Assembly: GCA_947629475.1 (NCBI GenBank)
Contig: CANRDV010000003.1
Location: 1 to 48,088 of the forward strand
Origin: an uncultured Bacilli bacterium
Lineage (GTDB): Bacteria; Bacillota_I; Bacilli_A; RF39; UBA660
Direction: 5' to 3'
DNA: 48,088 bases
How positions within the stretch are numbered: the first letter of the stretch is position 1; every line of letters starts with the position of its first letter. Under the pieces are notes generated by a model. It searched no databases and was not told the origin of the DNA. It saw only the letters and a list, made by a program, of their open reading frames with translations. A program made the position numbers and the translations under genes. This document shows, in pieces, positions 3,436-9,609 of this stretch.

Positions 3436-3870
3436 ATGGGAAAGAAAAGTTTTGGTAATTTAGCGTTAGGAGTTGCAATTGGAGCAAGTTTAGGAATTTT
3501 ATTTGCACCTAAAAAAGGAAGTGAAACAAGAAGGGCTTTAAAGGGTAAGATGTTAGATTTAACATCAAAAGCTAAAGAATTAAGTATTTCTGATGTTTCT
3601 GATATGGTTCAAGATAAGATTACAGAAATCAGACATGATTTAAATGACTTAGATAAGGAAAAAGTTTTAAAAGTTGCAAGAGATAAGTCTGAAGCAATTA
3701 AAAAAAAATGTGAGGATTTAGTTAAACTTGCAATTGATAAAGGAACACCTGTTCTAAAAGATGCAGCTGAAGAAGTTCGTGATAAAACAATTGAAGTCAT
3801 GAAAGATATGATTGCAAAACTTGAAAATGCTGGTCCTGGACCAAAGTCTGAACCTAAAAAAGCAAAATAG
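3436..3870 (+). CDS. YtxH domain protein
   Basis: Signature GVAIGASLGILFAPKKGSETR. Confidence 0.85.
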   Translation: MGKKSFGNLALGVAIGASLGILFAPKKGSETRRALKGKMLDLTSKAKELSISDVSDMVQDKITEIRHDLNDLDKEKVLKVARDKSEAIKKKCEDLVKLAIDKGTPVLKDAAEEVRDKTIEVMKDMIAKLENAGPGPKSEPKKAK

Positions 3871-3888
3871 TTGATTTTGATTATTAAG

Positions 3889-3917
3889 TAGATATAGTTA
3901 TGTATATCTCTTTTTTT
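3889..3917 (+). terminator. Intrinsic terminator of the ytxG/ytxH operon
   Basis: Hairpin AGATATA-gttatg-TATATCT followed by a T-run. Confidence 0.6.
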
Positions 3918-3941
3918 ATTAATTGATATTCTTTACTTGAC

Positions 3942-4574
3942 CGTTACGAAAAAAAGGTTCAGGCCACGTGCTTAAGCACGTAAATTCTTAAGAATTTAGA
4001 GGTAATTTATTGCCAAGGCCGGCAAAAGGATATATAATATTGAGACAAAAGCGATGCGAAGAAAAATGAGAAAATCAAGTCACGTCCAATATGATATCCA
4101 AATGCATATAGTATGGACAACAAAATATAGATATAAAGTATTAAATGGAAGAATAGGAGAGAGAGTAAGAGAACTAATAAGGCAAAGTTGTAATAGTATG
4201 GACGTGACGATAATAAGTGGAAGCATAGGCAAGGAACATATACATTTGTTAGTGTCAATGCCGCCGAGCTTAAGTGTCTCAAAATTAGTCCAACAGCTCA
4301 AAGGAGTGACATCAAGAAAAATATTAATGGAATATAGAGAAGTAAAACAAAGATACTGGGGAGGACATATGTGGGCTGTTGGATACTTTTGCCGGAGTGT
4401 AGGATTTGTGACAGAAAAAGTAATAAAAGATTATATAGCAAATCAAAGCGACGAATCAGAAGATAATTTCAAAGTCTTAGGTTGAGATAGAGATAATAAT
4501 AAGGTAGAGTTTACTCTTAGAATGTACTTTCAGTACTAAGACAAGCCATGCACTTTAGTGCATGGTGTGTTGAC
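3942..4574 (+). mobile_element. IS200/IS605-family insertion sequence (tnpA only)
   Basis: Left flank TTGAC (3937-3941). Left subterminal palindromes ACGTGCTTAAGCACGT (3966-3981) and TAAATTCTTAAGAATTTA (3981-3998). Right hairpin CCATGCAC-TTTA-GTGCATGG (4546-4565). End TTGAC (4570-4574). Confidence 0.85.
4054..4485 (+). CDS. tnpA: IS200/IS605 Y1 (HUH) transposase TnpA
   Basis: HIVWTTKYRYKVL, HUH motif EHIHLL, LKGVTSR, WAVGYF, catalytic Tyr in DYIANQ. The start may be ATG 4066. Confidence 0.95.
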   Translation: MRRKMRKSSHVQYDIQMHIVWTTKYRYKVLNGRIGERVRELIRQSCNSMDVTIISGSIGKEHIHLLVSMPPSLSVSKLVQQLKGVTSRKILMEYREVKQRYWGGHMWAVGYFCRSVGFVTEKVIKDYIANQSDESEDNFKVLG

Positions 4575-4598
4575 AAAAGTTATACATTATTATATTAT
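4570..4598 (+). promoter_or_regulatory. Sigma-A promoter formed across the IS right end
   Basis: TTGACA (4570-4575), 17 bp, TATTAT (4593-4598), upstream of ORF 4651. Confidence 0.55.
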
Positions 4599-4650
4599 AA
4601 GATACAAAAAAATGCAATATCATTAAAAAATAATAAGGTGGTGTTTATAA

Positions 4651-5127
4651 ATGATAAAATCTACAGTAATGGATAAGAGAAAGTCATATTATTTAATGAA
4701 TAAAAATTATTCAAAAAAAGAACAAGATAATTTTAAAAATGGTAAGGTAATGGTAGTTAATTCTTTAAATGATATAGATGAATTTATTAAAAAAGCAAAT
4801 TATGAATCTACTAGTAATAAAAAATTATATTTTGGAAAGGTGAATAGTAAAACTTCTTTAAAAATAAAAAAGCAAACTGGAATTATGATAAATAATTATA
4901 ATTTGTCACTAAAAGCAAATGCTGTTAAACATATTTTTAAAAGGCATTCAAATGAAAAAGAAAAAATATCAGTTACGAAACAAGGTAAACCAATTTTAAT
5001 GTTTATAAAGAAATTAGGTGAAGTTTATTATTTGATAAATTCTATTTCGGATAAAAATTATTCTCTTGAAGTAATAACAATGTGGAAAAAAAATAAAAAG
5101 AAATCTGCCACTGTGGATAATGTATAA
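4651..5127 (+). CDS. PBECR3-like (Barnase/EndoU/ColE5-D/RelE-type) nuclease-domain protein, possibly internally shortened
   Basis: KKLYFGKV...IKKQTG...NYNLSL...VKHIFKRH...TKQGKP...FIKK...YYLI...SDK...LEVITMW resembles PBECR3 domains of phage polyvalent proteins as I recall them. RBS AAGGTGG. Confidence 0.55.
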   Translation: MIKSTVMDKRKSYYLMNKNYSKKEQDNFKNGKVMVVNSLNDIDEFIKKANYESTSNKKLYFGKVNSKTSLKIKKQTGIMINNYNLSLKANAVKHIFKRHSNEKEKISVTKQGKPILMFIKKLGEVYYLINSISDKNYSLEVITMWKKNKKKSATVDNV

Positions 5128-5175
5128 GCCTTATCCTAACGTCCGAAACGAACAGTGGTACGAGTTCTTTTTATG
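5085..5175 (-). ncRNA. Candidate antisense structured sRNA overlapping the 3' end of the nuclease gene
   Basis: Minus-strand promoter 5181-5209. Stems 5106-5114/5152-5160, 5115-5120/5131-5136, 5140-5142/5148-5150 and outer 5095-5102/5165-5172. Ends in a U-tract (A-runs 5086-5099 on + strand). Confidence 0.6.
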
Positions 5176-5180
5176 TATTA

Positions 5181-5209
5181 ATGATATCATAAAATTTGTT
5201 AATTGTCAA
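5181..5209 (-). promoter_or_regulatory. Antisense sigma-A promoter with extended -10
   Basis: Minus strand TTGACA (5209-5204), 17 bp, TGa-TATCAT (5186-5181). Confidence 0.7.
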
Positions 5210-5314
5210 TTCCTAAAAAATATTTATATTCCTTTACACAAAAATGTCTAGTCTCTTCCAATTTCTTAAAACTTGGTATATAATTAAATTATAATAAAGT
5301 AGAGGGTAAAGATA

Positions 5315-5935
5315 ATGGATGAAGAGAATAGTTTAATTAGTTTAATTAGTTTAATAGATGAAATATTTGATATCATTAAAACAGATTATTTAAAATATTT
5401 ATCCGATGATAAAAAAGACTTTTTAAAGAAACTTAATTATAAAAATCTTTTTACAATTAAAAATGATATTATTTATTATAAGACAGATTTAGTAACTTAT
5501 CCTTTAAAAAAAGAAGAGTTAACTATTGAAGTCTTAATATTCATGTGTCTTGCTCCTTTATGTGGAAATTTAACTCCCTTTAAAATATGTTTAATTGCAT
5601 CTGAAATAAAGTCATTGATTGAAAGGAATAATTTAGAAGGAAATAGAAACTTAGACTTTAATTTAATTGAAGTAATAAAAGAAAAAATATTAAATGATTT
5701 ACCATATAATATAATCTTTTTAGATACAGATATTGATATATTTAACTATTTAGCAACTGAAAAAGGTATTAGAACAGCTAAAATTTACTATTCATTAAAA
5801 CATGATTTTAACATCCATTTTCTAAAAGATGATTTTAATCCTTTAGAATATTTCTTAAAATACCAAGACTTAGAATATGAAACTAGTTATGATATAGTCT
5901 ATAACTTTATTGAAAATTCTATAATTTATAAATAA
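5315..5935 (+). CDS. Hypothetical protein
   Basis: 206-aa ORF with RBS GAGGG and upstream TGGTATATAAT. No family recognised. Confidence 0.6.
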   Translation: MDEENSLISLISLIDEIFDIIKTDYLKYLSDDKKDFLKKLNYKNLFTIKNDIIYYKTDLVTYPLKKEELTIEVLIFMCLAPLCGNLTPFKICLIASEIKSLIERNNLEGNRNLDFNLIEVIKEKILNDLPYNIIFLDTDIDIFNYLATEKGIRTAKIYYSLKHDFNIHFLKDDFNPLEYFLKYQDLEYETSYDIVYNFIENSIIYK

Positions 5936-7733: not shown

Positions 7734-7897
7734 ATATACCTTAAATCCTTATTTTATAAGACTAAAAAAAAATTTGTAAAAACGTGTCAAATTAAAAATT
7801 TCCCGTGTATATTATATATGGAGGTTCTAAAGGACTTTTTTTACTATTTAGACTCCAATTAAGAATAAAGGATTTAAAAATATATGCGGAGGAAAAA

Positions 7898-9073
7898 ATG
7901 ATAAAAACTAAAACTACTAAAAAGAAATTTAATAAATTTCCACTTATGAAAGATACTAGTTTTAAAGCCTTATTTGCGAACGAGAAAGAACTAGTACCTT
8001 TAACACTATTTTTATCTATTATTTTGGATATTGACTACGATAAACTTTTAGGGAATATTGAACTTGATAAAACTAAATATCCTAAAAGTGAACCAGACAA
8101 AAAAGCTGATGAAAGAGATGTTGTTGCAATAGTTAAATATCCTGAACCATTTAAGGTAATGATTGAAATTAATTACTATAAACCTTGGTTTAATAAGAAA
8201 AAACATTATTTACATGAAGATATAACAATGACTGTTAAAATTACTAGGGATAATTTTTATAAAGATGGTACAAATTATTATGGTTTACCAAAAGGGAAAA
8301 ACTATGATAGTTTATTACCTATAATTCTAATAGAATTATCACCATTTTTCATTAATCCTAATGTAAATAGGATTGTTGAAGAATTTGATATGCGAGATAG
8401 ATATGGATTTAAATTATTTAGTAATATTGAATTTACAAATATTAATAAAAATTTTAGTTTAAGAAACATTAATGTTGCATGGGTATCTAATATGTGGTAT
8501 AATGATAATATAAATGAAGAAGAATTATCTGAGTATGAAAAGAAAATTATACCAATGATAGCTTTACTTACTGCATCTAATATGAAAGATGTTGATAAAT
8601 GTCTAAAAAATATTAACACTTCTTCAGAAATTAAAAAAATTATAAGAAAGGAAATAAAAAAAATGGATACAAATAATTATGAATTTGGAATACCTTATGA
8701 CCCAGTTGAAGATTGGAGAAAAATTTTTCAAGGGGCTGTAAATATTTACAAAAAGGAATTAAAAAATTCTAAAAAAATAATAGAAGATTCTAAACAAGAA
8801 TTAAAGTCTTCCAAAGAAGAATTAAATGCTTCCAAGCAAGAATTAAAGTCTTCTAAAGAAGAATTAAATGCTTCCAAGCAAGAATTAAAGTCTTCTAAAG
8901 AAGAATTAAATGCTTTCAAGCAAGAAAAATTAGATATGATTAAAGAAATGCATGAGAAAGGTTTATCTTTAGAGTTTATTTCTGATATTACTAAACTTAG
9001 TATTGATGAAGTAGAAAAGATTATTAATAAATCTAAATCTAAAAATAAAAATGAATTTAAAGAAAAATTATAA
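7898..9073 (+). CDS. Rpn-family (PDDEXK_2 / recombination-promoting nuclease-like) protein
   Basis: KDTSFKALF, DERDVV and MIEIN nuclease-type motifs, then a coiled-coil repeat and C-terminal HTH (GLSLEFISDITKLSIDEVEKI). RBS GGAGG before ATG 7898. Confidence 0.7.
   Translation: MIKTKTTKKKFNKFPLMKDTSFKALFANEKELVPLTLFLSIILDIDYDKLLGNIELDKTKYPKSEPDKKADERDVVAIVKYPEPFKVMIEINYYKPWFNKKKHYLHEDITMTVKITRDNFYKDGTNYYGLPKGKNYDSLLPIILIELSPFFINPNVNRIVEEFDMRDRYGFKLFSNIEFTNINKNFSLRNINVAWVSNMWYNDNINEEELSEYEKKIIPMIALLTASNMKDVDKCLKNINTSSEIKKIIRKEIKKMDTNNYEFGIPYDPVEDWRKIFQGAVNIYKKELKNSKKIIEDSKQELKSSKEELNASKQELKSSKEELNASKQELKSSKEELNAFKQEKLDMIKEMHEKGLSLEFISDITKLSIDEVEKIINKSKSKNKNEFKEKL
8795..8926 (+). repeat. Coding tandem repeat, 3 x 42 bp (QELKSSKEELNASK)
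   Basis: Units start at 8795, 8837 and 8879. Each is two related 21-bp heptad-coding halves. Confidence 0.95.
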
Positions 9074-9086
9074 GAAAGGAATAAAA

Positions 9087-9389
9087 ATGGATACAAATAA
9101 TTATGAATTTGGAATACCTTATGACCCAGTTGAGGATTGGAGAAAAATTTTTCAAGGGGCTGTAAATATTTACAAAAAGGAATTAAAAAATTCTAAAAAA
9201 ATAATAGAAGATTCTAAACAAGAATTAATGTCTTCTAAAGAAGAATTAAATGCTTCCAAGCAAGAAAAATTAGATATGATTAACAATTTTTACAATCAAG
9301 GAATTTCGTTAAATGTAATTGCTAAAGCTTGTAATCTAAGTATTGAAGAGGTAGAAAAGATTGTTAATAAATCTAAATCTAAAAAATAA
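9087..9389 (+). CDS. Stand-alone Rpn C-terminal (RpnS-like) protein with variant HTH
   Basis: RBS AAGGA then ATG 9087 (MDTNNYEFGIPYDP...). Copy of the region starting at internal ATG 8663 of the upstream gene. Confidence 0.7.
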   Translation: MDTNNYEFGIPYDPVEDWRKIFQGAVNIYKKELKNSKKIIEDSKQELMSSKEELNASKQEKLDMINNFYNQGISLNVIAKACNLSIEEVEKIVNKSKSKK

Positions 9390-9609
9390 ATTATTATTAA
9401 TTTAAATAATTAAAATATTAATCTTGATGTTATATCTATAGATAGCAAACTTCTTTTTTTAGAAGTAGAATTAACTTGCATAGGAAAAAAGATGTTGATA
9501 AATAAGATAATTTTTAAATATTAGAAAGCAAGAATGTTGAATAAATGTTCTTCTTTTTTTGTAAATATATGTCAAATATCTTTATTTTTAATTTACTTTA
9601 GTATATTAT

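Follow-up and report, generated by a model that had tools for sequence, protein, structure and literature searches.

The closest described arrangements to the one reported here are toxin-antitoxin pairs in which the antitoxin is an RNA. The txpA/RatA and bsrG/SR4 pairs of Bacillus subtilis belong to type I, with convergent antisense RNAs that overlap the toxin gene at its 3' end, and in most type I families the toxin is a small hydrophobic peptide. In type III systems the antitoxin consists of tandem repeats that lie upstream of the toxin on the same strand and are processed by it. Here we analyze a stretch of 48,088 nucleotides from an uncultured Bacilli bacterium (contig CANRDV010000003.1; the whole stretch is called the window below), in which a predicted small RNA gene on the minus strand converges on the 3' end of an open reading frame (ORF) for a module resembling PBECR3, a predicted RNase domain. 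The first-pass annotation of this DNA had proposed the two as a candidate RNA-antitoxin system.

The locus shares with txpA/RatA and bsrG/SR4 a small RNA that has its own promoter, is convergent with the toxin gene and overlaps its 3' end, with no protein antitoxin, and the RNA, whose transcription is predicted, is complementary to the toxin mRNA, as in type I. It differs in the putative toxin, a predicted RNase domain of 160-240 amino acids where theirs is a small membrane peptide (in the window, a soluble PBECR3-like module of 158 amino acids in place of the small hydrophobic type I toxin), and in the RNA, a covarying three-way junction that lies mostly inside giant ORFs, one per domain, and that also exists as orphan copies. 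As in the type III systems ToxIN, CptIN, and TenpIN, a folded RNA would neutralize an endoRNase by binding it in a context of phage conflict. Unlike in those systems, the RNA gene here consists of one unit, located 3' of the ORF on the opposite strand, and not of tandem repeats upstream in the same operon, and the toxin fold is BECR-like rather than ToxN/Kid-like.

SymE/SymR and RalR/RalA, also of type I, resemble the locus in setting an antisense or small RNA against a nuclease-type toxin, but their RNAs work at the 5' end or, together with Hfq, in trans; their proteins are unrelated, and nothing is embedded in a polyvalent protein. The immunity proteins of colicins D and E5 and the CdiI proteins, which act on BECR-fold bacteriocins and polymorphic toxins, provide a parallel for a tightly linked cognate neutralizer with orphan immunity genes elsewhere, whereas here the neutralizer would be an RNA overprinted on the coding strand of the toxin. 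On the protein side, the module is the same as the PBECR3 domains described in polyvalent proteins of phages and conjugative elements (Iyer et al. 2017, PMC5512222) and has similar virion-gene neighborhoods; the window copy differs in being short, standing alone, and having an internal deletion. The main-text PBECR passages of that paper describe no immunity factor and no RNA partner, and literature searches on PBECR, polyvalent proteins, RNA antitoxins, and antisense RNA in prophages turned up no title or abstract describing an RNA partner of PBECR. From sequence comparison, we regard the locus as a candidate new variant of RNA-antitoxin-like systems, one resting on an RNA family that Rfam lacks and with a functional role that we propose below.

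A structured RNA gene on the minus strand

The features of the RNA gene and the ORF that it overlaps are as follows.

5181..5209, minus strand: sigma-70-type promoter of the small RNA (-35 TTGACA at 5209-5204, 17-nucleotide spacer, -10 TATCAT at 5186-5181)
5092..5174, minus strand: predicted small RNA of about 83 nucleotides, from A5174 to the U-tract (covariance-model match 5171-5092)
5100..5167, minus strand: three-way junction composed of P1, P2, P3, and P4
5167-5162 with 5105-5100, minus strand: closing stem P1, with one C-U mismatch in the window copy
5158-5152 with 5114-5108, minus strand: P2
5136-5115, minus strand: P3 hairpin GGAUAA/UUAUCC, its inner helix weakened to two of four pairs in the window copy
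5140..5150, minus strand: P4 hairpin CGUUUCGGACG (CGU-UUCGG-ACG), the most conserved segment of the family
5086..5099, minus strand: U-rich tract CUUUUUAUUUUUUUU after P1, a terminator-like 3' end
4651..5127, plus strand: PBECR3-like ORF, a predicted RNase module of 158 amino acids with a 28-residue internal deletion

The antisense promoter reported by the first-pass annotation, TTGACA-17-TGaTATCAT at 5209-5181, is present exactly as it was read, scoring 11/12 in a consensus scan, with a TG at 5189-5188 and a predicted RNA start at A5174 or A5176. The folded element also held up, as a three-way junction with the CGU-UUCGG-ACG and GGAUAA/UUAUCC hairpins, a P3 loop that contains the complement of the ORF stop codon TAA (5125-5127), and a U-tract. 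The RNA that the annotation had quoted, the reverse complement of about 5172-5095, was right in sequence and position, but its length of about 90 nucleotides is better given as about 80-85. The RNA overlaps the ORF at 5127-5092 and also the 3' flank of the ORF, on the opposite strand, and no minus-strand ORF follows it.

The minus-strand fold has an energy of -24 kcal/mol (z = -4.35), reached by none of 200 shuffles, while the plus strand of the same copy reaches a lower energy of -28.9 kcal/mol. Because its plus strand folds even better, the strand is undecidable from the window copy alone. The window is very AT-rich, and the GC content of the whole genome is 25.6%; promoter-like sites are common at such a composition, with 25 found within 2.2 kb against 17.4 +/- 4.3 expected, so that the single-sequence evidence was weak before homologues were compared.

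The Rfam scan suggested by the annotation returned no family: Rfam 15 has no match at the element at E<=10 (window 3800-5500) and none at E<=1 in six homologous loci. A resemblance to hammerhead ribozymes or to domain 5 of group II introns was considered and dropped, since the would-be core nucleotides vary and Rfam is blank. No direct repeat family covers the locus, which holds a single RNA unit.

Homologous copies were collected by several searches. Searching 401 genomes of the family at the DNA level gave hits in 223 at E<=0.01, among them four clear matches (G411, G310, G343, and G156) and one shorter real match (G069), the rest being short AT-rich chance matches. An IUPAC-code pattern run on one genome per species found 9 loci, and a looser gapped pattern gave 107 matches (99 metagenome stretches and 8 viral), of which 4 were true, with the internal hairpin motif, and 103 were chance. 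A covariance-model search was positive in 7 of 151 genomes, including G131, G176, G093, and G189. In total, 28 RNA copies were found with covariance models, 27 of which entered the promoter test and 23 the largest covariation alignment. The window RNA itself scores 88.4 bits with model R1 and 85.7 bits with model R2. Although BLAST of the element against its own genome showed no second copy, the covariance model later revealed a divergent one on the minus strand (G000:C16:20751-20835, L164; 49.6-67.1 bits). The 11-mer P4 motif occurs in this genome only at the two RNA genes, and neither the motif nor its complement is found anywhere else in the genome as a possible trans target.

Comparison of the copies supports the proposed structure. 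The 12 distinct close copies have a mean column identity of 78% with invariant blocks, and in their MAFFT-only alignment the hand-set structure gives a covariation of 0.208 against 0.139 in shuffles (0/500), with slid controls at 0.089 or below. Covariation rises to 0.388 (shuffles, 0.172) with 17 copies and to 0.529 with 23 copies (shuffles, 0.211, none of 500 reaching the score; slid controls at most 0.101). In the 23-copy alignment 87.4% of the cells are paired and 23 of the 27 pairs have changed on both sides in a compensatory manner. The P4 stem pairs are kept in all 23 copies, including one with a U-A to C-G double change (L165); the P4 variant with this change, CGCUUCGGGCG, is carried by two copies, L165 and L190. 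UUUUU follows P1 without variation in all 12 close copies, while a divergent subgroup has P1 extended by AUGUGGAAG/CUUCCACAU and then UUGUUUU. RNAalifold on the raw MAFFT alignment recovers P1 and P2 only; P3 and P4 needed the hand-set structure and model-based realignment.

The strand was decided with the same pair list read on both strands of the 23 copies. Both strands have 451 Watson-Crick cells, but G-U cells number 75 on the minus strand and 13 on the plus strand, and unpaired cells 76 and 138, respectively; with 17 copies, the G-U pairs already numbered 55 against 10. Where the minus strand has G-U wobbles, the plus strand has A-C or C-A mismatches. As judged from these aligned copies, the folded strand is the minus strand.

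The promoter is conserved along with the fold. In the 65 nucleotides upstream (TTGACA at 5/6 or better, spacer of 16-18 nucleotides, TAnnnT at 4/6 or better), a TTGACN-17-TAnnnT promoter precedes 24 of the 27 copies, always with a 17-nucleotide spacer and mostly with the TG, against 204 of 5,400 random 69-nucleotide windows from the same loci (3.8%). It is retained where the region is coding, and there in different frames, the codon phase of GTCAAAT differing between L044 and L149; this points to a constraint at the nucleotide level.

It is highly improbable that the conserved feature belongs to the plus strand or is not an RNA at all, that is, a terminator of the PBECR gene, a stimulator of -1 frameshifting, protein conservation in a linker, or a DNA site for recombination or replication. 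The stronger plus-strand fold of the window copy (-28.9 kcal/mol) with a T run after it, the heptamer AAAAAAG that immediately precedes the element in 12 of 27 copies, and the open reading frame that spans the region in several genomes would all fit such a feature. The pair counts contradict it (G-U, 75 minus against 13 plus; unpaired, 76 against 138), as do the 15 copies, long-ORF copies included, that have no heptamer, and a T run that is not conserved. Compensatory changes alter the encoded residues, the stop codon may lie before, inside, or after the element, and the conserved promoter with its fixed 17-nucleotide spacing points to transcription. A plus-strand intrinsic terminator only was rejected because the consensus scan lists none, the T run is not conserved, and unpaired cells number 138 on the plus strand and 76 on the minus strand; a dnaX-type -1 frameshift site was set aside because AAAAAAG precedes only 12 of the 27 copies and the strand test favors the minus strand. 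As a separate observation, in the close long-ORF copies the heptamer that precedes the element (window 5085-5100) has the frame A_AAA_AAG that fits dnaX-type -1 slippage.

Two points count against an RNA gene. Alignments A2 and A4, having been fitted to the model, are biased toward its structure, and relatedness inflates the shuffle test; we nevertheless argue that the covariation signal is real, because the slid controls are low and the raw MAFFT result is positive. Second, the conserved ACG TCC GAA ACG, which codes for TSET, could reflect a protein-level constraint in the long ORFs. With both points weighed, we consider it very probable that 5209-5086 on the minus strand is a real RNA gene. 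The annotation's proposal of a minus-strand structured RNA with its own promoter, transcription being predicted, is thus borne out by covariation, G-U asymmetry, and promoter conservation, and the copies appear to form a well-supported RNA family absent from Rfam.

Linkage of the RNA to PBECR3 modules

The window protein matches Pfam PF18812 (PBECR3) at 27.7 bits (E 2.8e-6), under the cut-off of 30 bits, and only over profile positions 2-44 of 115. Its close relatives P0002, P0005, and P0009 match at 80.2, 63.5, and 88.6 bits, from position 2 to 111-114. The annotation's label of "PBECR-like" is hence marginal for the window protein and firm for its close relatives (63-89 bits), the sub-threshold score of the former being explained by the deleted block of 28 residues. 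His99, Ser133, and Thr143 are retained despite the deletion; His99 is invariant in 35 relatives and Ser133 and Thr143 in 10, and their assignment to an active site is by position only.

A profile-free protein search found 387 relatives at E<=1e-3, many of them internal modules of proteins of 1600-3700 amino acids, while a word-indexed search with the window PBECR returned only the window's own protein and a protein search across 61 relatives yielded nothing beyond a remnant in G014. The AF2 model of the window protein has a pLDDT of 85. Foldseek with this model gave nothing at E<=0.001, and its weak top rows include CdiA-CT, YoeB, HigB2, and RelE. For residues 81-150, VIA-align wide reached a Z of at most 4.2 (BrnT; root-mean-square deviation, 3.0; 59 aligned), followed by a Salmonella toxin-antitoxin complex (7vd7; Z 4.0) and RelE (Z 3.4), all below the tool's reliable level.

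Searching by protein first, we found this PBECR module in 12 of 401 genomes of the family, and in all 12 the 3' end of the module is accompanied by the RNA on the opposite strand, with model scores of 30.8-97.8 bits; five of the 12 were found by protein alone. The RNA also stands beside the PBECR module in three of three viral contigs, and within these two sets this PBECR clade was never found without it. The GenBank phage record closest to the module protein (H1, the only one tested of seven tblastn hits) has the RNA at 58.9 bits.

Rather than in two-gene cassettes, the RNA occurs mostly inside giant ORFs for phage polyvalent proteins. At L044 it lies within an ORF of 1928 amino acids, right after the PBECR3 domain (residues 520-637) and with LPD38 further on, and in the viral contig at L057 the polyvalent ORF is preceded by genes resembling those for terminase and portal. 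The viral contig at L181 (2363-3061) has one ORF of at least 1822 amino acids with two divergent tandem PBECR modules, each with its own antisense RNA and promoter, the promoter stretch after each of the two modules coding for IPQNTENVN. Stand-alone ORFs of 158-238 amino acids with the RNA at their 3' end are found in the window and at L041, L042, L045, L046, L172, and L174, with L045 and L046 syntenic in one genus. The stop codon can come before, inside, or after the element or be absent. The PBECR protein is 36-53% identical between relatives, against a mean column identity of 78% for the RNA, and syntenic PBECR orthologues are 43% identical with a dN/dS of about 0.5. RNA subtypes track PBECR subtypes, the subgroup L171-L177 combining weaker PBECR scores with a different, extended P1.

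A single further ORF near the RNA bears on the annotation's statement that no protein antitoxin gene is evident.

5315-5935: ORF of 206 amino acids downstream of the RNA promoter, with no Pfam or PHROG match

In tblastn against 31 related loci this ORF has no homologue (best E 0.05), and it is an implausible candidate for a conserved protein antitoxin. The statement agrees with our data, since this search found no conserved protein neighbor of the RNA/PBECR3 pair.

This arrangement could also come from cis-antisense silencing of leaky late-gene mRNA for polyvalent or PBECR proteins in lysogens, for instance by duplex cleavage, with no toxin logic and with the adjacency to PBECR accidental. Complementarity between the RNA and the sense mRNA is complete in every case, and the RNA is convergent and overlaps the 3' end or the linker; the sigma-70 promoter looks constitutive; and the P4 loop UUNG presumably corresponds to the YUNR U-turn motif of antisense recognition loops. 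We nonetheless hold this explanation to be quite unlikely. Two RNA genes in one ORF, one per PBECR domain (L181), exceed the need of one mRNA, stand-alone cassettes of PBECR and RNA are kept at several unrelated loci, and the orphan copies lack a PBECR mRNA as a pairing target.

The orphan copies, RNA without PBECR, are L049, L162, L164, and L165. L164, the second copy in the genome of the window, has its own TTGACA-17-TATATT promoter and converges on the 3' end of a permease-like ORF of more than 500 amino acids, with no PBECR nearby. Its orthologue L165 (G011:C3:36840-36924), in one of 22 other species of the genus, also sits at the 3' end of the permease-like ORF, and the two copies differ by compensatory changes with promoter and fold intact in both. 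Remnants of the element are present at L047, L161, and L010. At L010 (G014:C43, 1-470), a CRISPR array with 36-nucleotide repeats and a type II-like look directly abuts what is left of a PBECR 3' end, together with the 3' half of the RNA gene; this PBECR remnant is read in a frame other than that of the window copy.

Orphans with intact promoter and fold beside a permease gene in two species, together with their compensatory changes, the solitary copy L049, and an invariant P4 hairpin that suggests one conserved partner, would suit a small RNA independent of PBECR, a trans regulator or a decoy for a host factor that phages carry as an extra gene and that was overprinted by chance on the disordered linker after PBECR3. 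Such an RNA is unlikely, given that the genome has no second P4-complementary site, that the RNA co-occurs with the PBECR clade in 12/12 and 3/3 cases, that both copies are retained in the two-domain protein, and that RNA subtypes follow PBECR subtypes (L171-L177). A functional coupling of the RNA to PBECR3 is probable.

A possible antidote of PBECR3

Our proposal, which we put forward tentatively and hold to be somewhat short of probable, is that the RNA is an antidote of PBECR3, whichever of two modes it uses. PBECR domains have been predicted to be metal-independent endoRNases that use a His together with a Ser or Thr, according to the PBECR passages of Iyer et al. (PMC5512222), and this RNase prediction is one basis of the antidote reading. 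It also rests on the asymmetry typical of a toxin and its antidote, in that, within this clade, no PBECR turned up unaccompanied by the RNA whereas the RNA sometimes stands alone, and on one RNA per domain, no protein partner, and a protein that evolves faster than the RNA.

The RNA gene, with its host-type promoter, runs antisense to the last codons of a clade of PBECR3 modules and to the linker that follows, one RNA per domain, and most of these modules belong to virion-associated polyvalent proteins from phages and prophages of gut Bacilli with small genomes. In the mode that we favor, the folded RNA would bind the RNase domain directly, with the invariant P4 hairpin acting as a pseudo-substrate, as in type III systems; the orphan copies, the per-domain stoichiometry, and the invariant hairpin favor this mode over an antisense one. 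Perfect antisense pairing with the PBECR mRNA, in the manner of type I, may be an alternative or an added layer, antisense pairing being built into the arrangement. With the RNA gene placed inside the module, toxin and antidote would stay together as the domains of polyvalent proteins are shuffled, and copies without PBECR would be orphan immunity genes. We infer transcription, PBECR3 toxicity, neutralization, and its mode from sequence comparison.

A more specific version is possible but doubtful: each RNA would inactivate its own PBECR3 domain, prophages and bacteria with orphan copies would thereby be immune to RNases injected by related phages, and the solo cassettes would be domesticated hybrid type I/III toxin-antitoxin or abortive-infection modules.

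One RNA per domain, next to a fold that binds or cleaves RNA, could also be read as a substrate, cofactor, or packaging partner that PBECR3 needs, either processed by it or loaded into the virion with the polyvalent protein, instead of an inhibitor. The proposal in the PBECR passages of PMC5512222 that the inactive PBECR in Mu MuF binds RNA would agree with this. Orphan RNA genes in genomes without PBECR3 do not agree with it, nor is there any sign of processing in the data, and we regard it as very unlikely.

Several observations weigh against the antidote. All linked copies may share one ancestral module, in which case the co-occurrence counts are not independent events, and the orphan RNA genes in two species without PBECR3 in the genome could equally mean a function independent of PBECR. 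The toxicity of PBECR3 is a prediction taken from the PBECR passages of PMC5512222. In the window itself, P1 of the RNA contains a mismatch and the inner helix of P3 is weakened, and the PBECR protein is without alignment columns 132-159, a block of 28 residues (RGQ...DF...IP...D) that eight of nine relatives have; being internally deleted, the window copy may therefore not be an active toxin. In the other families of the class, Pfam-level PBECR3 occurs in 7 of 399 genomes, at eight loci, and five of these, the short solo genes L182-L185 and L189, have no detectable RNA. The other three are long polyvalent ORFs with the P4 motif at the expected place, one of them with a model hit; L186 and L188 combine the P4 motif and a compatible fold with scores at noise for models R2/R3 (15 and 14 bits).

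Given the internal deletion in its PBECR ORF, the pair in the window may be decaying or attenuated, with the RNA better preserved than its partner.

According to the PBECR passages of PMC5512222, about one polyvalent protein in four contains a PBECR domain, and a structured RNA locked to each PBECR3 domain provides a concrete ligand candidate, be it inhibitor, substrate, or guide. If the antidote reading is correct, this would be the first case of a BECR-fold RNase with an RNA as its immunity factor, and also an example of a noncoding gene overprinted antisense in a protein linker, by which toxin and antidote travel together through domain shuffling. Regardless of function, the RNA family is new to Rfam and comes from poorly studied small-genome gut Bacilli and their phages.

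Neighboring genes and repeats

Two features lie upstream of the PBECR ORF.

4054-4485: IS200-type Y1 transposase gene, just upstream of the PBECR ORF (Pfam E 1.3e-41)
4570..4598, plus strand: promoter-like site TTGACA-17-TATTAT upstream of the PBECR ORF (11/12 consensus matches only)

The site at 4570-4598 faces the PBECR ORF and may drive it. The IS200 transposase (window 3940-4600) is flanked by hairpins on both sides, and its right-end hairpin (4546-4565) is followed by this site. Further along, at window 7805-9400, an ORF of 422 amino acids ends in tandem ELKSSKEELNASKQ-like units, which make up the direct repeat families D1 and D2 (8648-9390).

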